Origin: Escherichia phage UGJNEcP1
Reading direction: 5' to 3' (one strand)
Sequence record: OV754623
DNA: 64,000 nucleotides
The translations under genes and the position numbers were made by a program. Under the pieces are notes generated by a model. That model saw only the letters and a program-made list of their open reading frames with translations. It did no database searches and had not been told where the DNA came from. Position 1 is the first letter of the stretch, and every line of letters begins with the position of its first letter. This document shows, one piece after another, positions 3,220 through 26,915 of this stretch.

Positions 3220-4221
3220 TTATTTCAGTAAAGTTACTTCAGAGATTTCCTCCCAACCATCTTTATCAGTTGAAATAAAATCTGCTACATAAAGAGCCGT
3301 ACGTAATGATACATTGCGAAGACGAGATACGTTAGCCTTCATCCAGGACAATGCTTTATACGTTTCTGCATCCGTCAGACCACGTTTCTGCATCATGTCA
3401 GTAGATAATATTACATCTTCAACTCGAACCATAATCTCTTCATTAGAGTGTACTCCAAGATCGAGATACACTGAACGAGATACTAAAGCTTGAAGGTGTG
3501 GAGCAAGTTTAGAACCGCGTTCTAACTCTTTATCGATATCAACGTTTGTAATGAAAACGATAGTACCTTCAAACTCAAATTCTTTATCAATACCCTTATC
3601 CTCGAGATAAGATGACGCAGTGCTCCAACAAACTTTGCGTTTATCTCCGGTATCTAATGCTGCTTTAAGAAGGTTCAGGATGTCCATATCTGAGAATACG
3701 TCAACGTCATCGATTAAGAGAACGCTGTCTGCATCACGGTTGAGCCAAAGTTGTTCGTAAAGGCCAATGCCAGAGATTTTACCATTAATGCTTTTGTATT
3801 TGATGAAACCATTATCATTAGCATTATTAAGTGCTTTATCCAGAGAATACGTCTTACCAATACCAGCTGCACCTGAAATAATGAGTGAACGAATTTTGCC
3901 ATCGATAATGCCATTCGTCATCATGTTCATTACTTTAAAGCGTTTGTTGATACGAGTTTTCATATCTTCAGTGCTTTCAACAACTGCAACCGGTGATGTC
4001 TCAACTCCTTCCATTACGATGTCTGATTTGAAGACCCATACTCCACGTTCAGAACCATCAATCATAACGAAAATTTTACCATCACCTAAGTGGGAACATT
4101 CAGGATTAAGCTTTGCTGGGAACCAGGTCTTTGTGGCGACATAAGAACCAGAGATTTCGTTATTACGATAGATACCTTTTTTGATTTGAACGTTGAACAT
4201 TTTATTCTCCAATTTACTCAT
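3220..4221 (-). CDS. P-loop NTPase (Walker A GAAGIGKT, Walker B VLLIDDVD), AAA-like
   Basis: Walker A and B motifs read directly from the translation; promoter 4230-4267 upstream. Confidence 0.6.
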   Translation of the reverse strand: MSKLENKMFNVQIKKGIYRNNEISGSYVATKTWFPAKLNPECSHLGDGKIFVMIDGSERGVWVFKSDIVMEGVETSPVAVVESTEDMKTRINKRFKVMNMMTNGIIDGKIRSLIISGAAGIGKTYSLDKALNNANDNGFIKYKSINGKISGIGLYEQLWLNRDADSVLLIDDVDVFSDMDILNLLKAALDTGDKRKVCWSTASSYLEDKGIDKEFEFEGTIVFITNVDIDKELERGSKLAPHLQALVSRSVYLDLGVHSNEEIMVRVEDVILSTDMMQKRGLTDAETYKALSWMKANVSRLRNVSLRTALYVADFISTDKDGWEEISEVTLLK

Positions 4222-7775: not shown

Positions 7776-7988
7776 TTAATTTTGGCCAGTATTTATTTTT
7801 CGCCTTTGGACGGCCTTAACATCTGTGAGGTATTTTTCCAGCTTGCGCTTGCGTGTATAATCAGCTTTAGAACCAGTTTGACGGATATCCTCGTTTAAAT
7901 GAGAAATAGAATGTCCTAATTCTCTTCGGATTTCATCCAATTGGGTTACAGTAAGATTACGAAGTTGTCTTTCGTTTAATTGCTGCAT
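7776..7988 (-). CDS. hypothetical protein (70 aa), rI-adjacent
   Basis: ORF between tk and rI. Confidence 0.5.
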
Positions 7989-8015
7989 ATATACCTCTTG
8001 GTTAGATATTAGTAT

Positions 8016-8597
8016 TTATAACAACCCTGTCAAATCATTCCAATGCTTCCGGCATAATGACACATATCTATCGGTATCACCAATTTCAATTTGACTGCCA
8101 TCTGTAATTGGAAGTCCGTCTTCCGTGACTCTAGCTACCATTGTGGCCTTTTTACCACAATGACAGACACCTTTAAGTTCAACAAGCTTATCGGCGATAG
8201 CCATTAATGCTTGAGAACCTTCAAATAGATTACCTTTAAAATCTGTTCGTAGTCCATATGCCATTACCGGCACATTGTATACGTCAACAATACGACTAAG
8301 TTGATACACCTTTTCAGTAGTTAAGAACTGAGCTTCGTCAACAAATACACAGTGAATATCCTTTTGTGCTGCAGCCCATTTATAGAATTCAAAGATATCC
8401 ATGTCTTTTGTAATTATATTGGCATCCTGACGAATACCAATACGAGAGACTATTTCACCTTTTGAATCACGAGTATCAATAGCCGGTTTAAGAACTAATA
8501 CACCCATGCCACGTTCTTTATAGTTATGTGCGGCAGTAAGTAATGAAGCAGACTTACCAGCGTTCATAGCGGCATAGGTAAAAATTAAACTAGCCAT
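8016..8597 (-). CDS. tk: thymidine kinase
   Basis: P-loop AMNAGKS, 193 aa, C-terminal Zn-ribbon Cys pairs (CHCGKK...C); strong recalled identity to T4 Tk. Confidence 0.9.
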   Translation of the reverse strand: MASLIFTYAAMNAGKSASLLTAAHNYKERGMGVLVLKPAIDTRDSKGEIVSRIGIRQDANIITKDMDIFEFYKWAAAQKDIHCVFVDEAQFLTTEKVYQLSRIVDVYNVPVMAYGLRTDFKGNLFEGSQALMAIADKLVELKGVCHCGKKATMVARVTEDGLPITDGSQIEIGDTDRYVSLCRKHWNDLTGLL

Positions 8598-10552: not shown

Positions 10553-11011
10553 CTAGATTTTAATCACTGCTTTAGAAGCTTTTCCTGGTAGTCGTTTATT
10601 GTTAATAATAGCCATTCTGCATTGAAGAGTCTTCATTTTGAATGCTGGATTTTCGCGACAAACTGTAAGTCCTAACCAAAGATTTCCATCAGTTATTTCT
10701 AAACGGCCTGGGCGATATTCGACACCTTCGACAAAATCTTCATCAACATCTGGACGTGCCGGCATTGATAAAAATTCTGCAACTTCTTTAACATGATTTT
10801 TTACTTTATGAAATAATTCAAAAACGTAATTCTCATCTATTTCTCTCTGGATGGCACGATCTAAGAGATGTTGAGAATACTTGATATGAAAGCCTGGTAG
10901 TCCAAGAGACTTTGCAGCATCTTTTATACTGGCATTTATTTTGCGGAACTCCGTTTCAAAGATTCGACGGAGTTTATTACGGCGGATAAAAACGTCTGAA
11001 TTGATAGTCAT
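10553..11011 (-). CDS. regB: RegB site-specific endoribonuclease
   Basis: 152 aa; MTINSDVFIRRNKLRR...GRLEITDGNLWLG...RLPGKASKAVIK matches T4 RegB as recalled. Confidence 0.8.
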   Translation of the reverse strand: MTINSDVFIRRNKLRRIFETEFRKINASIKDAAKSLGLPGFHIKYSQHLLDRAIQREIDENYVFELFHKVKNHVKEVAEFLSMPARPDVDEDFVEGVEYRPGRLEITDGNLWLGLTVCRENPAFKMKTLQCRMAIINNKRLPGKASKAVIKI

Positions 11012-11030
11012 TTTGATTTCTCCTCTAGTT

Positions 11031-11068
11031 GACAGGTCTATAGTAACACAACTAGAGGAGAAGTAAAC
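11031..11068 (-). promoter_or_regulatory. PeSL-type early promoter upstream of regB with SD-complementary spacer
   Basis: ACTAGAGGAG at 11051-11060 is the inverted repeat of the regB ribosome-binding region at 11021-11030. Confidence 0.6.
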
Positions 11069-11367
11069 TACTCTTTGAAAGGAATTAACTTTTTAACTGC
11101 TTTAGATACTTCGTCACGAACCTGGTGGAAGTTCTTGAGCTGTTCAAGGCGTTGTTCGTAATACGCAATCTCATCTTCTTCAAGACAATCGTCAGCGTCT
11201 TCTTTCAGATATGCCTTGTACTCATTAAAGAGGGCCCATAGGCGATTCTCAAAGTCATCAAGGCTTTGAATTTTCTTGTGCTTCGGAACAAGGCCAAAAG
11301 GATTGCTTTCAGTTATGCGTCGAGATGCTTCATAATGAGTTCCAAAGCCTGATAGGATTTGAGCCAT
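11068..11367 (-). CDS. hypothetical protein (~100 aa)
   Basis: ORF; start placed at MAQIL to give ATGA-type junction. Confidence 0.45.
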
Positions 11368-11612
11368 TAGTATTTTTCCTCTGGTTGAAATACCGCACGA
11401 CAAGCCCACATACTAGCTTCCTTTAGGCGTTCTTTAGCACAGTTCAATTGGGACAAAGCCGTCAGAGCTTCAGGAGTATTTGCTGATAATGCTTCTTCTG
11501 CCAGGGCGTCTAGAATAAGTCCTAAACGAACTTCGGCATCTTTAATAGCGTTCACTTTACCGATTTTATCATCGGTATGCGGCTTGTAGCCTTTAATATC
11601 TTCAATCGACAT
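11367..11612 (-). CDS. hypothetical protein (~81 aa)
   Basis: Internal Met start ([10 protein letters not shown]) avoids overlap with upstream ORF. Confidence 0.4.
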
Positions 11613-11826
11613 AAGGAATTTCCTCATCAGTGGCAAGGTCATATTCGACCAATTGGATAGGCTCATTAATACCATATCCACGTACAGTGATATCAGTTGT
11701 CGGATAGTTTCCAGTAATATCACCCATTCTAAATGCTTCAATGAATGATTGCTCGCCTGAGCAACTAAACCAGGCGGCAAAACATTTTAAAACATCTTCA
11801 GACCCTTCTATAATCAATTTAGCCAT
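11602..11826 (-). CDS. hypothetical protein (74 aa)
   Basis: ORF with ATGA overlap to the GrcA-like gene. Confidence 0.45.
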   Translation of the reverse strand: MAKLIIEGSEDVLKCFAAWFSCSGEQSFIEAFRMGDITGNYPTTDITVRGYGINEPIQLVEYDLATDEEIPYVD

Positions 11827-12188
11827 TATAGACTCTCAGTAAAGGTACGAGCGATAACGTCGCGCTGCTGTTCCGGAGTCAGAGAGTTAAAGCGAACTGC
11901 ATAACCGGATACACGGATGGTCAGCTGCGGATATTTTTCTGGATGCTTAACTGCATCTTCCAGAGTTTCGCGACGCAGAACGTTAACGTTCAGGTGTTGA
12001 CCACCTTCAATTTTAACTTTAGGTTGATGTTCAATTTCAATTTCACGGGCATTCAAACCGTAGAAAATTTCCGGGTCTACAATAGCGTCTTCTTTAAAAG
12101 TCTTAGAGACAATAATCCGGGCTTGAGTACCGTCTTCAAAATAAATAGTGCCTTTGTGTTCACCTTCAAGAATTTGATATGCTTTCAT
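11826..12188 (-). CDS. autonomous glycyl-radical cofactor (GrcA/YfiD-like)
   Basis: C-terminal [25 protein letters not shown] glycyl-radical motif; 3' half of the gene is markedly GC-richer than phage background. Confidence 0.8.
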
Positions 12189-13212: not shown

Positions 13213-13542
13213 TTATACTCTAGGCTTTTGAGCTTGTTTGGTATTGGATTCCCATGCAGCTTTGGTAATTTTGTTAGCGGCATAACCAAAGGCACTAGAT
13301 AGAACACCTTTAGAGTTGAATACATCCAATCCAATAAGTACACCGGCTGTGTTAAATTTAGGAGCAAAGTACGCATTAGTTTTAGAAAGAGCTTTTTTCA
13401 ATTCAGGGTCTTGAACCAAACCATCAAAAACGCCTTTACTATTTACTTTATATGTTACTTTGGGATTTTTACCTTCTTCGATAGCAGCTTTCTGTTCCGC
13501 AGATAATGTAACTTCAGTGATAAACTCTTGATACGTTTTCAT
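13213..13542 (-). CDS. internal-protein-like (capsid-targeting leader MKTYQEFITE)
   Basis: N-terminus matches the T4 internal-protein capsid targeting sequence ending in the prohead-protease site I/L-x-E. Confidence 0.7.
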   Translation of the reverse strand: MKTYQEFITEVTLSAEQKAAIEEGKNPKVTYKVNSKGVFDGLVQDPELKKALSKTNAYFAPKFNTAGVLIGLDVFNSKGVLSSAFGYAANKITKAAWESNTKQAQKPRV

Positions 13543-13567: not shown

Positions 13568-13882
13568 TTATTCTTTAGGGAAGTTTTTAGAGTATGCATC
13601 ATAAAGTTTATTACCGATGCGACGGAAGACTTTAGCTGCAAAACGGTTTTCAGGGTTTTTAATCATGATTTGCATCATGTAAGTTCCTGCATCCGAAAGA
13701 GCTTCTTCATAGTACCCATTAATTTCTTTAAGGGTCCTACGTTTACCGCCAGGACCATCAACAGTAATTTTCCATTTACCTGTAGAAGTGCGGCTCGGTG
13801 GCTCAACTTGTTCAATCCAAATATAACCGCCTTCAACGCGTTGGTTGGCGGATTCTGCAATAAATTCTTTATACGTTTTCAT
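13568..13882 (-). CDS. internal-protein-like (capsid-targeting leader MKTYKEFIAE)
   Basis: Same N-terminal leader; promoter 13912-13941 upstream. Confidence 0.7.
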   Translation of the reverse strand: MKTYKEFIAESANQRVEGGYIWIEQVEPPSRTSTGKWKITVDGPGGKRRTLKEINGYYEEALSDAGTYMMQIMIKNPENRFAAKVFRRIGNKLYDAYSKNFPKE

Positions 13883-14067: not shown

Positions 14068-14481
14068 TTAGTAAATTGATTTACCATAGTATTTGTACCA
14101 AGTCGGACGTTGAGCAATTTTTTCATCTAAGCGTGCTTGACTTATCGCAATGGACGCTTCGGACGGGACATAATTATTACGAAATTCGGCAGGGATGTCG
14201 GAAATATCCTGGACTGTCGTGTCCTTGATTTTGAAACCACGTTTCAAACATTCAGCGATTAGCTCGATTTGTCGTAAACGTAAAAATTCGAGTTTGTCGT
14301 AAAAGAATGTTACGTGACCTGTGCCTAAGATAAATGTTGGAGAGATTTTAAAATCCTTTACACGTTTACCGTTTTGAACATGTTTACGGACTGCACCGAA
14401 TACACGAGGTAATTCACGATACTCAGCCATAAGATGTTGGTCGGTCAGTTCAGAAACAAGTGTTAAATTGATACGGGTCAT
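14068..14481 (-). CDS. denV: endonuclease V (pyrimidine-dimer DNA glycosylase)
   Basis: [12 protein letters not shown]...[17 protein letters not shown]...PTWYKYYGK closely matches T4 DenV as recalled. Confidence 0.9.
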
Positions 14482-14500
14482 AATTTCCTCCAAGTAGTTG

Positions 14501-14538
14501 ATGAATGTATAGTATCAAAACCCTTGGAGGAAGTAAAC
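14501..14538 (-). promoter_or_regulatory. PeSL-type early promoter upstream of denV with SD-complementary spacer
   Basis: CTTGGAGG at 14524-14531 complementary to the denV Shine-Dalgarno region CCTCCAAG at 14488-14495. Confidence 0.6.
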
Positions 14539-14539
14539 A

Positions 14540-14836
14540 CTATTTTTCTGAAGCGCCTGAAATATATTTTTCAAGACGTTGTTTCATCAGCGAACCGTTC
14601 TTAGCGATTTCTTCCGGTTTATCGCACATACGTAACAAGGCTTCAAGCTTAGCGATATCGCTGGTACGTTCAAATTTGCGAGTATCTATCTTACTAGCAA
14701 GTTCAGAAATACGTGCTAATAGACTTTCAGCTTCAACCAAAGCTGCACCTAGCTTAGTCGCAAATGTGTCAGTAGCTTCGTTAAGAATAGATTCTGATAA
14801 AAATTCACTATATGTTTTCATATATACGCTTTCCAA
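14540..14836 (-). CDS. internal protein (IPII/IPIII position; leader [10 protein letters not shown])
   Basis: Capsid-targeting leader; located between denV and e where T4 has ipII/ipIII. Confidence 0.7.
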
Positions 14837-15306
14837 GTTCCTGTTTTAAATGTTGAGATTACGCGTTTCGCGCGATTAGGTGTCTGACGATACCATTTAG
14901 ATTGGGCTAGATTTACTGCCGCTTCATCCCAACGTTTCTGTTGAAGCATACGAAGAGAATTAGTAAAACCGGCTACGCCTGATACACCCATTTGGAAGAC
15001 CATATTGACCAATGCACACCGACGAACTGCATCTAAAGAATCGTATACCGGTTTAAGTTTAGCATTACCCAAGATTCCACGAACGGCTTTATCAACGTCT
15101 TCATTAAATAGCTTTTCAGCCTCATCAAGGGTAATTGTACCGTTGCATTTACGACCGATCATTCTGTCAAGTTCAGCTTTAGCTACGGCTAAAGACGGGT
15201 TCTTTGTTACCAAATGGCCTATGCCAATCGTCCAAAAGCCTTCAGTGTCTTTGTATAAAGTCAGTCTAAGACCTTCGTCATTACGAAGCATTTCAAATAT
15301 ATTCAT
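14818..15306 (-). CDS. e: lysozyme (endolysin), T4 e type
   Basis: MNIFEMLR...DEGLRL..YKDTEG..TIGIGHL...[13 protein letters not shown], 162 aa; start placed at MNIFEML. Confidence 0.95.
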
Positions 15307-20657: not shown

Positions 20658-21249
20658 ATTCTCTACATTCCATAATAAATTGCTCAAGGATTAAATTGTT
20701 AGTGAAATTAGGACTAACAACCATGGTTTCATAAAGCGCATCAATAGCACTTAAAGCATCAACTCTTTTAAGCAAAGGCTTGCCTTCATACATAGTTTCA
20801 GAATCGACGATTAACGTAAAGTAATATTTTTTATTATCGACTAGAACTTCAGTATCGATATAAAACATGTTAGACCTCAGAAGCTTATCTCTAAAACCAT
20901 AATAATCTTCTGAACGTTCGCTGATATATTCCCATTCAGTGTTTAAACAACAAACAGACCACGTAGGAGCAACGAAATTAGTGAATCTAATATCATGATC
21001 TGCAACTAGTTTAGCAATAGCTCCGATATCATGAATCATAATACCCGGGGCTAATAAAGATTTTCTGCTATGGCTAGCCGTTTTCTCAGTAGTCTCATAA
21101 GAAGACGACCAGTACCATTTACGTCCAGTTGCAACATATCGTAATGAATCAACTAAAGACGTAGGTGGATTTACCTTATCTCGGAACTCTTCGAACATTG
21201 AGTCAATATCATTATTTTGGTTTCGCATGTTAACTCCTTTATTATCCAA
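20626..21249 (-). CDS. hypothetical soluble protein (207 aa) with C-terminal EQFIMECRE motif
   Basis: ORF; motif near C-terminus. Confidence 0.55.
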   Translation of the reverse strand: MDNKGVNMRNQNNDIDSMFEEFRDKVNPPTSLVDSLRYVATGRKWYWSSSYETTEKTASHSRKSLLAPGIMIHDIGAIAKLVADHDIRFTNFVAPTWSVCCLNTEWEYISERSEDYYGFRDKLLRSNMFYIDTEVLVDNKKYYFTLIVDSETMYEGKPLLKRVDALSAIDALYETMVVSPNFTNNLILEQFIMECREYVKANPIHAK

Positions 21250-21277
21250 AAGGAGGACCGGAGTCCTCCGTATTATT

Positions 21278-21886
21278 TTATTTCAAAGAGTTAATATATT
21301 CTTGTACATCAGCAGAAGTGGTTTCGACACCGGCTGGAGTGCCATTGAACGTTTCAACACGAGTCAGAGTGTCTTCGATATCAACCTTAGTTAGTGCAGC
21401 AATTTCAATCACATCATCGGCCGTAGAGATACCAAGAGCATTAGCTGCTCGAGTTTCACGAATGTATTCGAGTTTGATTGCCAGATTCTGACGAGCATCA
21501 TCAAGTTCAACCACCTTACGAGCAATTTCAATTCGCATAGCGGCATACCCGTCAGCTTTTGTATTAAGTTGTTCGGCAGTTCGACGATACAGAAGACCAA
21601 GCTTAGCATGCATGGTAACATCTTGTCCTTCAGCCAGGAGCTTACGAATTTCACGTTCCTTAGAAGCGGCTTGCTTATTCTTTTCAATAACAAGTTCGCG
21701 AATACGTTTTTCTTCATTAATAGATTTAACAGAAGCCGTTTTTAGTTCTTTGATTTGGGTAATCAACTTATCTGCAGCTGCGTTATACTGTTCTTCGACA
21801 GTCAGATTTTTAGCCATAGCAGTACCCAGTTTAGTGCGGATGAATTCAACAAGTTTCTTCAGTGTGTTCATATTATTACCTTTCAA
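21278..21886 (-). CDS. coiled-coil protein (202 aa)
   Basis: Heptad-rich sequence; no confident family. Confidence 0.5.
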
Positions 21887-21941
21887 TTGGTGGTTTATTA
21901 TCCAACGAGAGCATTATACTCTGCTCTCAAGAGTTTGTAAA

Positions 21942-22169
21942 TTATTTTTTAATCAAATTGACATAAAACTTGGCGTCTTCGGGGTGCATGCCTTCGCAGT
22001 ATTCTTCAACCATGAACTTCTTAATAGCTTCATAAGGACCGCTCAGATTAAGCTCAGTTGTCCAGAACTTGGAATCTTGGGCCGAATCAATACGAACTTC
22101 AGGGTGACGGTTGCGAATAACTTCTTCGGTGTATTCATAATCAACGACATCAATACTAACTTTAGCCAT
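21942..22169 (-). CDS. hypothetical protein (75 aa)
   Basis: ORF downstream of promoter 22194-22227. Confidence 0.5.
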   Translation of the reverse strand: MAKVSIDVVDYEYTEEVIRNRHPEVRIDSAQDSKFWTTELNLSGPYEAIKKFMVEEYCEGMHPEDAKFYVNLIKK

Positions 22170-22193
22170 TTTATATTCCTCTTGATTTGATGT

Positions 22194-22227
22194 GATTACT
22201 ATAACATAAACTTACTTAGATGTAAAT
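22194..22227 (-). promoter_or_regulatory. early promoter-like element (-35 ATTTAC)
   Basis: TATAGT-type -10 and near-consensus -35. Confidence 0.45.
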
Positions 22228-22380
22228 TATTTCAACGTCACCTTTAGCCGCTTTATAACCTTCAGCCCAAGATACAACAGAGTTTTTATCCGAGGATTCA
22301 AATTCAGGCATTGGACTTTCACCAATATTCACACAGTATGTTTCTTCATTTTCATCGAACCAAATAATTAAAGTAGTCAT
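22216..22380 (-). CDS. small hypothetical protein (54 aa), not in ORF track
   Basis: ATG at 22378-22380 behind a promoter/leader cassette near-identical to the one at 58621-58680. Confidence 0.4.
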   Translation of the reverse strand: MTTLIIWFDENEETYCVNIGESPMPEFESSDKNSVVSWAEGYKAAKGDVEIIYI

Positions 22381-22401
22381 TTTGTTTACTCCACTGTAGT
22401 T

Positions 22402-22440
22402 GATAAGTCTATAGTATCACCGTCCTTGGTGCTTGTACAT
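22402..22440 (-). promoter_or_regulatory. PeSL-type early promoter/leader cassette (copy A)
   Basis: Near-identical over ~40 nt to 58621-58660. Confidence 0.55.
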
Positions 22441-22448
22441 CATTATTT

Positions 22449-22754
22449 TTAATTTTTCCAACTTAACAACTTGTAGTGTCCTTCATTCATACGTGGTTTA
22501 TCCCAAGAAATACTAATATATGATTCGTTGTCAATAGAAGTCGCCGGGTTTTTCTCTACCGTAAGACCTTCACTTTCCAGCCATTCAATAGTATTTGCGC
22601 ATAAATCAGAAGAACACCTCATCGGGAACCGGCAAGATTTTTCACCTTTAGCTGCAGTGTTATACATCTTTTCTAAAATACGCTTTTGCACGTTTTTAAA
22701 AATAGTTTCAGCAGATTCTTCAGATTTTTTATTCAGTTCAGTGTAAAGACTCAT
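22449..22754 (-). CDS. hypothetical protein (101 aa)
   Basis: ORF downstream of promoter 22776-22811. Confidence 0.5.
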   Translation of the reverse strand: MSLYTELNKKSEESAETIFKNVQKRILEKMYNTAAKGEKSCRFPMRCSSDLCANTIEWLESEGLTVEKNPATSIDNESYISISWDKPRMNEGHYKLLSWKN

Positions 22755-22775
22755 AATATTTTCCTCATGTTTTTA

Positions 22776-22811
22776 TAGGTCTATAGTAACACATCTAGGG
22801 AAGAAGTAAAC
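22776..22811 (-). promoter_or_regulatory. PeSL-type early promoter
   Basis: ataggtctatagtaacac... + GTTTAC. Confidence 0.6.
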
Positions 22812-22834
22812 AACTTTTTCAGTAAGTTATAGAC

Positions 22835-22858
22835 CCCCTAAAGGGGACCGAAGTCCCC
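22835..22858 (-). terminator. hairpin terminator (GGGGAC-TTCG-GTCCCC)
   Basis: GC stem-loop downstream of 22864..23490. Confidence 0.45.
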
Positions 22859-22863
22859 ATTCT

Positions 22864-23490
22864 TTACTTACGAGTTTTTGCATACTGAGCAGCGTCAGCA
22901 GCCAAACGACCTGCCTGACGAAGTTTTTCTTTAATCGCATCGTGAAGTGGTTGAGTATACTTCAAACCTTCGATAGTCAAATAAAGACGATAAAGGTCTG
23001 GGGTATCAAGGTTGTTGATATGTTGGCCATTACGAAGACTGTTGAATTCACGAACGAGTGAAGATGTATCGGATTCAATATCACGAACAAGCGAAGATAG
23101 TTGTTTATATTTTTTTTCCAGGCTAGAAGTATCAAACTTAAGAGAAGGAGCTTTAGGAGTTGCTTTTACTTCCGGCTTAGGCTCAGGTTTTGCTATTGCT
23201 TTAGGGGTCGCAGGTTTAGGAACGGTAGGAGCAGGTTTTACTTTAGGCGAACCCGATTTAGCAGAAACACCGCCACTAACAATATCTTTGAATGCTTTAG
23301 AAGCTCTGTAATATTCTTTTTGGCTGGAAGTGTCGATACCATACATGGCTTGAACGTTTTTGAAAAACTCTGTACTAGTTTTTGTACCAGAAATAGCATC
23401 GTAAGCAGCTTGCCATTTCTCTTTTGTCATACGTACACCGGCTTCGGTGATTACTTCCGTTTCGGCTAAAAATTCATTAAAAGTATACAT
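22864..23490 (-). CDS. internal-protein-like (leader MYTFNEFLAE; Lys/Pro/Ala-rich linker)
   Basis: Capsid-targeting-like leader; late promoter TATAAATA at 23527-23534 (minus) upstream. Confidence 0.6.
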   Translation of the reverse strand: MYTFNEFLAETEVITEAGVRMTKEKWQAAYDAISGTKTSTEFFKNVQAMYGIDTSSQKEYYRASKAFKDIVSGGVSAKSGSPKVKPAPTVPKPATPKAIAKPEPKPEVKATPKAPSLKFDTSSLEKKYKQLSSLVRDIESDTSSLVREFNSLRNGQHINNLDTPDLYRLYLTIEGLKYTQPLHDAIKEKLRQAGRLAADAAQYAKTRK

Positions 23491-23526
23491 TGATGGTCCT
23501 TAGAAAGTAGGTTTATTGTTTACTAT

Positions 23527-23534
23527 ATTTATAC
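23527..23534 (-). promoter_or_regulatory. late promoter TATAAATA
   Basis: Exact late-promoter octamer on minus strand upstream of internal-protein-like gene, just after a terminator. Confidence 0.55.
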
Positions 23535-23563
23535 AAAAAAGCCCCAACCTTTCGGAAGGGGCT
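23535..23563 (-). terminator. rho-independent terminator
   Basis: AGCCCC...GGGGCT stem + TTTTTTG on minus strand; same stem family as 7427-7454. Confidence 0.6.
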
Positions 23564-23606
23564 ATATACCTTGTCGGGGTTTCCACCTACTAAGGCAAGT
23601 GTTTGT

Positions 23607-23698
23607 ACGAAACGCCGGGATTCGAACCCGGTTATTAAGCAGTTGACGCTACTCAATATTTTTAAAAGGCCATATCTTGACCATATCCGAACGTTCCG
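23607..23698 (-). ncRNA. tRNA-like element / possible stable RNA (T-arm GGTTCGAATCC with 7-bp acceptor-like stem)
   Basis: Minus-strand CCGGGTTCGAATCCCGG T-arm and complementary CGGAACG/CGTTTCG ends, but ~92 nt and no clean anticodon arm. Confidence 0.3.
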
Positions 23699-23866
23699 TC
23701 AAAAACGCTACTCGGCTTACGGCAAAGATATTTCCTCGAATCGATAATTCTGTGCGCCGTTTCTGCTGTGATGTAAGGGGATATTAACAAATCATAAAGA
23801 TTTATTAAGACCAGTCCTTACTCAGGGAACATCAGTCCGACGACTTGCCGGTAGCGACCCGGCTTC

Positions 23867-24211
23867 TTATTTTGGCATATCATCAATTTGTTCTCTACGT
23901 CTACGCCATAGATTAATTACTTCATCAACACATTCAGCATTTGGTATATGACGACAATAGTATAGTGATTCGCGTTTCTGGAACCGATGTTGTAATGGGA
24001 TTTCGTTTAAAAGGTCTTTACGGTCAAAGTATTCAAAACTAGTTAACCCAGAACGGTTTTTAATGAACTTCCAATGACCAAATTCATTTTGAACATAGAC
24101 GTAATCGGCATGCTGATACAGCGAATTAATTAACCTATCGGAAATAACTGTTTCACGTTCGTTAAAATAAAACGTTAAATCATGAACTACCAGATAAACA
24201 TTGCCTTTCAT
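23867..24211 (-). CDS. hypothetical protein (114 aa)
   Basis: Start moved to ATG 24209-24211 (GAGGAAAA Shine-Dalgarno); longer track ORF would overlap tRNA-Arg. Confidence 0.55.
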   Translation of the reverse strand: MKGNVYLVVHDLTFYFNERETVISDRLINSLYQHADYVYVQNEFGHWKFIKNRSGLTSFEYFDRKDLLNEIPLQHRFQKRESLYYCRHIPNAECVDEVINLWRRRREQIDDMPK

Positions 24212-24229
24212 ATTTTCCTCACTTAAAGT

Positions 24230-24306
<77 letters not shown>

Positions 24307-24309
24307 GAT

Positions 24310-24384
24310 TGGTGACCCTGGCTGGTTTCGATCCAGCTACCTATCAGTTATGAGCTGACAGCTCTCCCATTGAGCTACAGGGCC
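24310..24384 (-). tRNA. tRNA with CAU anticodon (Ile-lysidine type or Met), CCA encoded
   Basis: Acceptor GGCCCTG/CAGGGTC, D-stem GCTC/GAGC, anticodon loop CTCATAA, T-stem GCTGG/CCAGC; 3 nt from tRNA-Arg. Confidence 0.75.
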
Positions 24385-24463
24385 TAAATAACTTTCTATT
24401 ATGAAAGGCACTTTAGAGCACCTTTGGTAATAGAGGGTATGAATTAATAATAACACATAATTC

Positions 24464-24979
24464 TTAAAGCAAATCAATCATTTTAACAGTCGGCAAAACA
24501 ATTTCTTCTTCAATATAAGCGAATTCAACACGTTCAACTACACGCAAGAAATCATAGTCGTAGTATTCAGAAGCATAGCCAAGAATATCAATAAGGCCTT
24601 GGGATATCTCATCGCCTTTCACAAAGAACAGGTCGAATACACGCGATTCGTCTTCTTCAGATTTATTACCAAGGTCGACTTCAATATCAAAGACCTTTTT
24701 AATGAATTCTGGATAAAGCTGGTCTGAGAACAGTCCTTCAACCAAGTATTCATAGATTAAAAGCGAGCAATCACTGAATGGTGTATTACCACAGTAACGT
24801 TCAGCTTTAGTGCTAGAATGACGACTCTTAAATTTCTTCAAGAGATATTTAAACTGTTGGAGCTCATGCTCTTCCACTTCAAACAATGTTTTGGTTTTAT
24901 AGTTGTCACCATCATTTTCATAGGTAGTGACATCAATTACGTAACCCTTAGGAATTGTACTGCCTAAACAAATATTCAT
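24464..24979 (-). CDS. hypothetical acidic protein (171 aa)
   Basis: ORF upstream of tRNA pair; no GIY-YIG or HNH motifs seen. Confidence 0.55.
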   Translation of the reverse strand: MNICLGSTIPKGYVIDVTTYENDGDNYKTKTLFEVEEHELQQFKYLLKKFKSRHSSTKAERYCGNTPFSDCSLLIYEYLVEGLFSDQLYPEFIKKVFDIEVDLGNKSEEDESRVFDLFFVKGDEISQGLIDILGYASEYYDYDFLRVVERVEFAYIEEEIVLPTVKMIDLL

Positions 24980-24983
24980 TTAC

Positions 24984-25274
24984 TCACCGTACCATATTAA
25001 TGTAATTATATTCAATGCAACGTAATTTCAAAGGATTCTTGAAAATATCATATTCAAGAGGACCTTTTTCTGTTTCAATAAAGAAATCAAAGTTCACACT
25101 ATTAAATTTGCGGTCTTCCCAAAGTAATTTAACCTGTGAAGATGAACGGTCGATGTAAACCTTTTCAACTTCAAAGTGGGTCAAAATACCATAGTAATCG
25201 ACTAGTGCTTTAGCTGCAGCTCGGTCGCTTTCATATCCATTCTCAACGGATTTTACCTTAGCATAAAGAATCAT
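24984..25274 (-). CDS. hypothetical protein (96 aa)
   Basis: ORF, ATGA overlap. Confidence 0.5.
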   Translation of the reverse strand: MILYAKVKSVENGYESDRAAAKALVDYYGILTHFEVEKVYIDRSSSQVKLLWEDRKFNSVNFDFFIETEKGPLEYDIFKNPLKLRCIEYNYINMVR

Positions 25275-25651
25275 GAATGTTCCACCATTTCAAAGGTATG
25301 AGCATCAACAATATGATACCAGTCAAAATTTTCTTCTGCGTTTTTATAAATTTCGCGAAGAGCCTCAACAGTTTTTCCTGTAGCAACAAGGTCGTCAATA
25401 CCACCAAGAGGATAACAGTCATAACCAGCAAACAGAAGGAAATTAATAGTTTCTGTAGGTTCTGGATGCAGAACTCCGTTATCGTCTACCACTTCAAAGA
25501 AAGTGTAAGAAGGAGTACAAGTTTTAATCCAGGCCCATGCTTGAGCTGCTGAATCAAATGGATTACGGAATAAACGACAATCCGGGTCTTTAGAAGGATT
25601 TGCTTCAAAATCAGCATATACGTGATATTTCATTTTACTCACCTTTTGCAA
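25271..25651 (-). CDS. hypothetical protein (126 aa)
   Basis: ORF on coding strand. Confidence 0.5.
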   Translation of the reverse strand: MQKVSKMKYHVYADFEANPSKDPDCRLFRNPFDSAAQAWAWIKTCTPSYTFFEVVDDNGVLHPEPTETINFLLFAGYDCYPLGGIDDLVATGKTVEALREIYKNAEENFDWYHIVDAHTFEMVEHS

Positions 25652-25832
25652 TTTTATCCATAACGATAGCGATTAAGCCGATTAGAAATGCTACTACCAA
25701 TGAGATAGAGTTTTCAGTTGTTGTCAGTAGTCCACAAATGAATCCTACAAACATCGAAAAACTAAAAGCCATTGAAGCAATTACTACAGCAACATTACGA
25801 ATCAGTTCAGCGCGTTTCATTTTATTCTCCAT
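25635..25832 (-). CDS. small membrane protein (65 aa)
   Basis: Two hydrophobic helices; promoter 25848-25886 upstream. Confidence 0.5.
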   Translation of the reverse strand: MENKMKRAELIRNVAVVIASMAFSFSMFVGFICGLLTTTENSISLVVAFLIGLIAIVMDKIAKGE

Positions 25833-25847
25833 TTACTCATTTGTTTT

Positions 25848-25886
25848 GATAGGACTACTATAATATAATCCTATCAGCATGTAAAC
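25848..25886 (-). promoter_or_regulatory. PeSL-type early promoter
   Basis: gataggactactataatataatcctatc hairpin + GTTTAC. Confidence 0.6.
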
Positions 25887-25888
25887 TA

Positions 25889-26152
25889 TTAAATACCAGC
25901 TTCGCGTTTAACATAATCGACGTAAGCTTGGATAGCTTTCTTGCTGGTAATTTTTACCTGGCCACGTCCATTGCCTTCTTTAGAGTTTTTCTTAACAACT
26001 ACATTACCATCTTTAACACCCCATACATGGACGTAAGTACCGATGTTTCGGTCGTAGAACATTGCATGGTCGTTGTTGTAAGAGAATGATTCGTAGTTCT
26101 CTGTCAGAGTAGAAGATTGAGATTCGGCGATAAATTCTTTATAGGTTTTCAT
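25889..26152 (-). CDS. ipI: internal protein I-like (leader MKTYKEFIAE)
   Basis: Capsid-targeting leader; located next to 57B as ipI is in T4; promoter 26178-26216 upstream. Confidence 0.65.
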   Translation of the reverse strand: MKTYKEFIAESQSSTLTENYESFSYNNDHAMFYDRNIGTYVHVWGVKDGNVVVKKNSKEGNGRGQVKITSKKAIQAYVDYVKREAGI

Positions 26153-26177
26153 TTTATTTCCTTGAGGTTGTTTATTT

Positions 26178-26216
26178 GATAGGATGATAGTAACACACCA
26201 TCATCCTTATGTAAAC
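26178..26216 (-). promoter_or_regulatory. PeSL-type early promoter upstream of ipI-like gene
   Basis: Stem AGGATGAT/ATCATCCT flanking -10; GTTTAC -35. Confidence 0.6.
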
Positions 26217-26229
26217 TGTTTTGTGAAAA

Positions 26230-26915
<686 letters not shown>

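Follow-up and report, generated by a model that had tools for sequence, protein, structure and literature searches.

Bacteriophage T4 makes three internal proteins (Ips), IPI, IPII and IPIII, also called Ip1, Ip2 and Ip3, each of which inhibits a different GmrSD type IV restriction enzyme (PMC12373910; preprint of eLife paper PMC9391042), and their genes fall into two separate loci (PMC12373910). For the packaging of a foreign protein, the N-terminal 10 residues of IPIII are enough, as is known from Black's experiments, and within the T4 leader residues 4 and 7 matter for targeting whilst residues 8 and 10 matter for processing by gp21 (reviewed in PMC9026906). Mature IPI has 76 residues and is derived from a precursor of 95, implying a cut after residue 19 (PMC3012670). 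In a 64,000-nucleotide stretch of DNA from Escherichia phage UGJNEcP1 (record OV754623), referred to here as the window, positions 22864-23490 of the minus strand hold an open reading frame (ORF) for a protein of 208 residues, which starts from an ATG and has the N-terminus MYTFNEFLAE. The protein carries a leader of the T4 Ip kind, its gene lies between rnaC and the e.x genes and not in either of the recognised Ip loci (57B-ipI-trna.4 and e-ipIII-ipII-denV), and its homologues are found in the same slot in several genera of T-even phages. Location in one of these loci is customary for the known members, but the mechanism does not demand it. That internal proteins bear such leaders and are polymorphic is already well known; within the literature searched, it is this family, its fixed third locus and its modular build that appear to be new. 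T4 serves as the reference for annotation and does not have the gene, which is probably why the family has been overlooked.

IPIII (Ip3, PHROG 5341) shares with the window protein a leader ending in [I/L]-x-E (MKTYQEFIAE, as also in IPII), a comparable length (193 residues) and a calculated isoelectric point (pI) of 9.54, which is the value of the 208-residue precursor as well. The likeness does not extend past about residue 26: the BLAST match (E = 0.005) is confined to the leader, the two proteins fall into different PHROGs and the IPIII gene is located downstream of e. The two helical domains joined by a Pro/Ala/Lys linker belong to the 208-residue protein, and the target of IPIII is the GmrSD of ECOR17. 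A remote homology of the N-terminal domain to IPIII, considered for residues 1-26 of the BLAST match, is on these grounds unsupported. IPI (Ip1) resembles the window protein in having Phe at leader position 4 (MKTFKEF), in being matured at an ITE/A site (the slash marks the cut) that lies beyond the first 10 residues, comparable to the invariant VITE/A of residues 13-17 here, and in having its gene on the tRNA side of the e.x cluster. It differs in being a compact beta-sheet protein of 95 residues (PMC3012670) rather than an all-helical one of 208, and in occupying a separate slot about 2.4 kb away, where the window has an IPI-locus gene of its own. Beyond the leader, BLAST, PHROGs and a structure search revealed no likeness in sequence or fold to IPI, IPII or IPIII. 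The alignment to the IPIII N-terminus suggested with the original prediction holds for the leader, which matches IPIII and IPI, and for nothing further on.

True relatives of the protein are found in PHROG 2280, and include fD1 g140/ECML134_132, ECML134_131 (equivalent to RB69ORF149c plus ORF148c), IME08 orf129, JS98 gp135 and PG7 gp146. All share its slot and its leader, and in each of them N-domain, linker and C-domain succeed one another as they do in the window protein; the PHROG E-values are 1e-57 to 4e-60. They differ from the window protein in sequence (20-70% identity), some phages carry two tandem paralogues, and the Kanagawavirus and Jiaodavirus members, together with the representative P0026, have unrelated C-terminal domains.

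The start of the ORF is well bounded, with an in-frame stop just 3 codons 5' of the ATG, which is the first ATG after that stop. When the leader pattern M-x(1-3)-[YFW]-x-[ED]-[FILM]-[ILVM]-x-E was applied to ORFs of at least 40 residues, exactly five were found in the window and none in each of 100 shuffles; the remaining four are located in the two classical Ip loci. The gene had been described in the original prediction, with its strand unstated, as a fifth leader-bearing gene beginning MYTFNEFLAE, and this description is borne out. The residues F4 (as in T4 IPI), F7, L8 and E10 match the positions shown by experiment to be critical in T4. The leader is kept in every family member examined, across nine genera and in distant representatives, in forms such as MKTYNEFLNE, MLKFKEFISE, MLNFKEFITE, MLQYNEFLKE, MKSYTQFLNE and MKTYAEFLTE.

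The second predicted processing site is also strongly conserved. Within the N-terminal region, Glu16 alone is without variation in each of the three family alignments, and although the propeptide varies from 9 to 16 residues amongst homologues, the A/S-x-x-R-M-T-K-x-K-W that follows stays in register across genera, as would be expected of a conserved site of maturation. The 208-residue protein has three [I/L]-x-E sites in all (residues 8-10, 14-16 and 186-188). The window also encodes the portal gp20, the protease gp21 (Peptidase_S77, E = 3e-107), the scaffold gp22 (T4_CASP), gp23 and gp24, and the same type of site is present in two of these head proteins, as FLTE/AEI in gp23 (residue 66) and LLRE/STT in gp24 (residue 10). 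T-even internal proteins are recognised in part by a capsid targeting sequence at the N-terminus, by a gp21-type site in a genome that encodes gp21 and gp22, and by being small, basic and non-essential. MYTFNEFLAE can be read as the first of these, the predicted sites LAE/T and ITE/A occur together with gp21 and gp22, and the predicted mature form, of about 21-22 kDa with a pI of about 9.7 (9.68), is small and basic; it is probably non-essential, because T4 is without the gene and the content of the slot varies amongst relatives.

Beyond the leader, AlphaFold (mean predicted local distance difference test score, pLDDT, 73) predicts two helical domains separated by a flexible segment. The N-domain is modelled as three helices over residues 20-73 (pLDDT 80-88), and the C-terminal bundle, over residues 120-207, is predicted with greater confidence (pLDDT about 90), its helices spanning residues 122-153, 164-177 and 180-206. 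Between them, residues 74-118 are modelled as disordered (pLDDT about 31). The Lys/Pro/Ala-rich linker noted in the original prediction is thus confirmed by composition, with 11 Pro, 9 Lys and 6 Ala in its 40 residues (79-118), as well as by the model, and it varies in length and sequence amongst homologues. A structure search of the PDB and BFVD returned generic helical-bundle matches only.

The gene has expression signals of its own. The terminator and exact late promoter box that had been claimed for its upstream side are both present, and the gene is the only one of the five leader-bearing genes to have an exact late box directly behind a terminator. The hairpin GCCCCTTCCGAAAGGTTGGGGC, which has a folding energy of -17.3 kcal/mol in context, was missed by a simple terminator scan because of an internal bulge in its stem. 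It is the conserved 3' terminator of the rnaD/rnaC homologue, and is the same after rnaC in T4, RB69, IME08, ECML-134 and fPS-65. The exact box TATAAATA occurs 17 times on both strands of the window against 10.9 expected, with five on the minus strand; alone it is not rare in AT-rich DNA, and its weight comes from position plus conservation in relatives. A late-type box, exact or with one mismatch, stands at the equivalent position in IME08, PG7, W14-4, fHe-Yen9-01, CHI14, CIP9, Marfa and ECML-134, and the equivalent box in fPS-65 was named a ‘predicted late promoter’ by its annotators. The end of the cassette is marked by the downstream hairpin GGGGACTTCGGTCCCC (-12.2 kcal/mol in context). 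With the rnaC hairpin and late box upstream and the UUCG hairpin downstream, the gene therefore looks like an insulated cassette of about 720 bp, probably with its own late transcript. The four classical Ip genes are arranged differently: none has an exact or one-mismatch late box within 150 nucleotides upstream, two lie behind early-type GTTTAC-N17-TA(C/T)(T/A)AT promoters, one begins 25 nucleotides after the upstream Ip gene and one overlaps the end of e. The features of the gene and of its surroundings are collected in Table 1.

Table 1. Positions in the window of the 208-residue ORF, its parts, its signals and neighbouring features
Feature	Position	Strand	Basis or remark
208-residue ORF	22864-23490	minus	
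Codons 1-10, MYTFNEFLAE, capsid-targeting-sequence-like leader with first gp21-type site LAE/T	23461..23490	minus	comparison with T4 IPs
Codons 11-16, TEVITE, with second gp21-type site ITE/A	23443..23460	minus	Glu16 invariant in family
Codons 17-78, constant helical N-domain (RMTKxKW...MYGIDTS...YYKxxxAFK)	23257..23442	minus	AlphaFold, alignments
Codons 79-118, Lys/Pro/Ala-rich linker	23137..23256	minus	composition, AlphaFold
Codons 119-208, C-terminal three-helix bundle (FDTSS...NNLDTPDLY...YTQP), variable module	22867..23136	minus	AlphaFold
Shine-Dalgarno AAGGA	23497..23501	minus	6 nucleotides before ATG; sequence read directly
T4-type late promoter box, exact TATAAATA	23526..23533	minus	43 nucleotides before ATG, one base past T6
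Terminator hairpin GCCCCTTCCGAAAGGTTGGGGC (23562-23541), then T6 (23540-23535)	23535..23562	minus	sequence read directly
rnaD/rnaC-like small stable RNA genes	23606..23866	minus	T4 alignment; boundaries approximate
Downstream hairpin GGGGACTTCGGTCCCC, UUCG loop	22843..22858	minus	5 nucleotides past stop codon
Early-type promoter GTTTAC-N17-TACTAT	22811-22783	minus	serves next gene
Four classical leader-bearing Ip genes	13213-13542, 13568-13882, 14540-14821, 25889-26152	minus	
IPI-locus gene (last of these four)	25889-26152	minus	87 residues, leader-bearing
tRNA-Met (CAT)	24310-24384	minus	
tRNA-Arg (TCT)	24230-24306	minus	
Lysozyme gene e	14818-15306	minus	

Homologues of the gene occupy the same slot, between the tRNA/rnaC region and e.8 or the e.x genes, in at least nine T-even genera. 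Besides the window itself (Mosigvirus), the slot is filled in IME08 and JS98 (Dhakavirus), CHI14 (Winklervirus), PG7 (Karamvirus), CIP9 (Kanagawavirus), KP179, W14-4 and ValerieMcCarty04 (Jiaodavirus), fHe-Yen9-01 (Tegunavirus), Marfa (Marfavirus) and ECML-134, fPS-65 and fD1 (Tequatrovirus). T4 has instead a non-coding gap of about 285 nucleotides between rnaC and e.8, in which the rnaC hairpin and TTTTTGGTAT are kept, followed by GGTATCTAAGCC in place of GGTATAAATATAG, so that there is neither a late box nor a gene. As the family is so widely distributed, a deletion in T4 is the simplest account of the empty slot. The idea that ipII and ipIII stand beside the tRNA genes in T4, which would have put the 208-residue gene in a classical position, is wrong: the T4 annotation places both downstream of e.

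The slot exists in three states, being empty in T4, holding one gene in the window, IME08, PG7 and fD1, and holding two tandem paralogues in ECML-134 and fPS-65, where a second copy of the hairpin precedes the second paralogue. In both of these phages (ECML-134 780-2100, fPS-65 800-2114) each tandem paralogue is preceded by a GCCCC..GAAAGGTTGGGGC-T5 hairpin, and the duplicated hairpin may act as a recombination site through which cassettes are added or removed. The first paralogue of fPS-65, g136c, has 112 residues with an unrelated end, compared with 157 in ECML-134, and looks frameshifted. On the other side of the slot, e.8 follows in T4, RB69 (10926-11189), IME08 (3226-3504), PG7 and fD1 and is missing from the window at 22754-22864, where the next gene downstream is a homologue of RB69ORF146c (22449-22754). 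The downstream border of the slot, judged from these arrangements, is variable too.

Alleles also appear to have moved between genera. The RB69 (Mosigvirus) allele is at least 95% identical in DNA to those of many Tequatrovirus phages, compared with an overall nucleotide identity of 61% between a Mosigvirus phage and T4 (AV110 preprint), and the disparity suggests a recent transfer of the cassette from one genus to another. The near-invariant rnaC region is a likely substrate for recombination, as are the repeated hairpin and the sequence that codes for the leader. Such an arrangement recalls the modular shuffling of T4-type phages: Repoila et al. (1994) reportedly described Ip polymorphism and modular gene shuffling at hyperplastic regions, and Arbiol et al. 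(2010) are said to have described promoter-stem-loop cassettes. Here, too, a small cassette lies between conserved repeats (the rnaC hairpin and the 30-nucleotide leader coding sequence) and its presence or allele varies amongst close relatives. The flank, however, is a terminator hairpin with a late promoter rather than an early promoter stem-loop, and the layout of the sequence points to recombination at these flanking elements as a plausible route.

The rnaC region deserves separate mention. About 260 nucleotides upstream of the gene are nearly identical to T4 rnaD plus rnaC over the stretch aligned in both, a striking conservation between genera that are otherwise about 61% identical in nucleotides. 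The region matches no Rfam family and is not found by ARAGORN, and the features that the 100%-identical GenBank record names under the match do not include rnaD/rnaC. The two are the species 2 (rnaD) and species 1 (rnaC) RNAs of T4, and we know of no function for either.

With regard to its family, the window protein matches phrog_2280 (‘unknown function’) with E = 1.5e-57, residues 1-203 aligning to profile positions 1-178 of 178. It has no match in a Pfam search, and all the listed GenBank records of the family name a ‘hypothetical protein’. A word-indexed protein search gave 18 clusters, and an exhaustive search of 1.84 billion representative proteins gave only 13 matches, none longer than 278 residues. 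This is a narrow family, and every member followed back to its source record came from a T4-like phage. The longest, P0020 (278 residues), has 60 extra residues before a MINFNEFLAE leader, almost certainly from a mis-called start codon in the assembly it comes from. Amongst 50,697 phage records, the subtypes were counted in four sets, which overlap: the window-type query, with more distant relatives, found 143 records by tblastn, each with a single copy; the CIP9/Jiaodavirus-type query found 185, of which 58 match over most of the query length; the RB69-type query, run with DNA, found 165; and the fD1 g140-type query found 512. Both fD1 g140 (phrog_2280 E = 4e-60) and the intact RB69 type (E = 1e-53) are full-length members, and hhalign relates fD1 g140 to the window's family (probability 95%, 152 columns). 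A single ORF of 187 residues, unbroken in ECML-134, fPS-65 and some 160 further records, is present in RB69 as a frameshifted copy in two pieces, RB69ORF149c and ORF148c; comparison of RB69 (NC_004928) 11429-11991 with ECML-134 1510-2073 indicates a frameshift or sequencing error in RB69.

The modular build of the family emerges from its more divergent members. For the CIP9-type proteins and the representative P0026, alignment to the family is limited to residues 1-83 and 1-75 (hhalign 99.8% and 98.7%), and the C-terminal halves of both are unrelated to that of the window protein. Because the profile alignments stop at residues 83 and 75, the family is described as a constant leader, N-domain and linker joined to at least three unrelated C-terminal modules.

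It is judged marginally probable, from the sequence features set out above, that the gene encodes a late, capsid-targeted internal protein, cleaved by gp21 after Glu10 and/or Glu16 and injected together with the DNA. Transcription from upstream would stop at the rnaC hairpin, and the TATAAATA late promoter would drive transcription of this gene alone, during the period of prohead building. The leader would then act as a capsid targeting sequence, by which the protein enters the prohead's scaffolding core of gp22, and the phage's own gp21 would remove the leader after Glu10 and/or Glu16 to leave the basic mature form. The latter would be kept in the head with the DNA, where the Lys-rich linker would be suited to contact with DNA phosphates, and would be injected with the genome to act before any phage gene is expressed. 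Its role there might be to neutralise a first-line host defence, with the C-terminal helical bundle as a swappable specificity module. By analogy with T4 Ip1-3 such an anti-defence role is the natural guess, albeit a tentative one that we would call improbable as it stands.

What is known of virions from relatives bears on this scheme in both directions. The product g140 of fD1, a full-length member from the same slot, was called particle-associated at a strict threshold in virion liquid chromatography-tandem mass spectrometry, whereas its neighbours g138 and g139 were not. In ValerieMcCarty04 the relevant protein is VMC04_131 (WKM80661.1), a type-2 relative with the same leader and N-domain but a different C-domain. 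It gave 0 peptide-spectrum matches in virions purified on caesium chloride, although IPII-like proteins in the same virions gave 26-66 matches and Alt about 190 (PMC13119998). This zero was accepted since VMC04 carries the gene and the identifiers in the peptide list run from WKM80658 straight to WKM80662; VMC03, which was not among the carriers listed, was left out of account. A 57-residue ORF adjoining the family member in ValerieMcCarty04 (63-236) is annotated as ‘vertex head subunit’, a name that looks unsupported because its only two peptide matches have E-values of 2.5-3.0. In the literature, no virion proteomics was found for Mosigvirus, Dhakavirus or Karamvirus: the RB69 arabinosylation paper has no virion protein list, the fPS-65 paper no proteomics and the AV110 Mosigvirus preprint no transcriptome.

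Several points count against an injected internal protein. The ValerieMcCarty04 result is one, and the fD1 call is of low specificity, as the calls extended to 113 of 277 proteins (41%), DenV, NudE and lysozyme amongst them. These two findings more or less offset each other, leaving a case that rests mainly on the leader and its conservation. Residue 2 of the leader is Tyr where Lys is usual, and the predicted structure yields no functional clue. Finally, the classical Ips are hypervariable and have only the leader in common, whereas PHROG 2280 is conserved across genera, and on account of this conservation a structural or morphogenetic role fits at least as well as that of an arms-race effector.

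A structural or morphogenetic role forms the main rival, owing to the unusual conservation, the purely late signals and the negative Jiaodavirus data. The protein would be an accessory of the prohead core, a scaffold or morphogenetic factor that the leader takes into the core during assembly, where it would aid the building of heads or the condensation of DNA, partly as IPIII does in T4. It would subsequently be expelled or stay in the virion at low copy, and would not be an injected effector. We regard this as unlikely, but it draws on a good deal of the evidence. A single slot conserved over nine genera is foreign to the hypervariable Ips, an all-helical protein with long coiled helices is reminiscent of the scaffold gp22, the exclusively late signals differ from the early-type promoters and read-through of the four classical Ip genes, and the absence of VMC04_131 from virions would be expected. 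T4 IPIII mutants, moreover, show slower head assembly and more polyheads (PMC9026906). With only three [I/L]-x-E sites against 15 in this phage's gp22, however, the protein would not be broken down by gp21 in the manner of gp22. T4 and many relatives also make normal heads without the gene, the swapping of C-terminal domains resembles the diversification of effectors, and fD1 g140 was detected with particles.

It is a little less probable still that the protein is not packaged at all, and is instead a late cytoplasmic protein whose leader reflects shared ancestry or recombination at Ip-type cassettes, with targeting since lost. The VMC04_131 result would follow directly, instead of Lys at position 2 the window protein has Tyr and many homologues have Leu or Ile, and the database records listed all annotate the protein as hypothetical. 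Loss of targeting is hard to square, however, with the conservation of positions 4, 7, 8 and 10 and of the invariant Glu16 in proteins that are 20-35% identical elsewhere. The T4 experiments implicate residues 4 and 7 in targeting rather than residue 2, the leader alone packages foreign proteins (PMC9026906), and IPI itself has Phe at position 4.

Recent displacement or transposition from the ipII/ipIII or ipI locus into the e.x cluster, as put forward in the original prediction, is very improbable. It has in its favour the leader common to the other four Ip genes and the known polymorphism of Ip loci (PMC9026906, PMC12373910), and it is true that the gene is far from the ipII/ipIII position, both relative to T4 and within the window, whose e-proximal Ip genes are found at 13.2-14.8 kb. 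Past the leader, however, none of the Ips of the window, of T4 or of RB69 shows any similarity to the protein, orthologues of the gene are syntenic with it in nine genera, and all 143 tblastn-positive records are single-copy. Comparison of the same locus in other T-even genomes, a check that had been proposed, thus revealed a resident slot that is empty in T4 and gave no sign of displacement. The mobility of leader-tagged cargo that had been proposed along with displacement stands insofar as alleles and C-domains are exchanged within the slot, and falls as regards hopping between loci. A chance ORF or antisense gene was rejected, because the protein is conserved across genera whereas the overlapping plus-strand ORFs are not.

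On a broader reading, which we think less likely than not, the members of PHROG 2280 would be injected effectors, forming a polymorphic family encoded at a third Ip locus. A constant delivery module, made up of the leader, the helical N-domain of about 60 residues and the flexible Pro/Ala/Lys linker, would be combined with interchangeable C-terminal effector domains. Equally doubtful is the corollary that genera swap whole cassettes by recombining at the conserved rnaC hairpin and at the sequence that codes for the leader.

The surroundings of the gene are those of an RB69-like phage. Window positions 21000-26500 match Escherichia phage UGJNEcP2 with 100% identity, and JS09, HX01 and further RB69-like Mosigvirus phages with 96-98%. 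The minus-strand gene order is as in T4, running from gene 1, 57A, 57B, the IPI-locus gene, the trna.4/3/2 homologues, tRNA-Met and tRNA-Arg to a RB69ORF150c homologue, the rnaD/rnaC homologue, the 208-residue ORF, the e.x genes, nudE, e and the leader-bearing genes around denV. The window has two tRNA genes in this region (24230-24384; Arg-TCT and Met-CAT) compared with eight in T4, and segB is absent from the stretch. The ipI locus is polymorphic, with one gene of 87 residues here and two adjacent genes in LF82-1 (7891-8550) and RB69 (14450-15110), and it is because of this difference that alignments with relatives come in two pieces at 95-96% coverage.

The family is common, being present in at least nine genera that include many coliphages considered as therapeutic candidates as well as Klebsiella and Enterobacter phages. 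Since the T4 Ips are injected GmrSD inhibitors, new capsid-tagged proteins are prime candidates for anti-defence functions. Were the family indeed one of polymorphic injected effectors, it would correspond in phages to the polymorphic toxins of bacteria and would be a ready supply of new anti-defence proteins, and T4-centred work would have missed these proteins because T4 deleted the locus. Were the protein not packaged, the lesson would be that the leader alone does not predict packaging. Recognition of the slot would add a third Ip locus, with natural C-domain swaps, in which the N-domain and linker may form a second and larger delivery module. Phage engineering already loads cargo with the T4 leader, and the family may represent a natural, larger and multi-domain form of such cargo.

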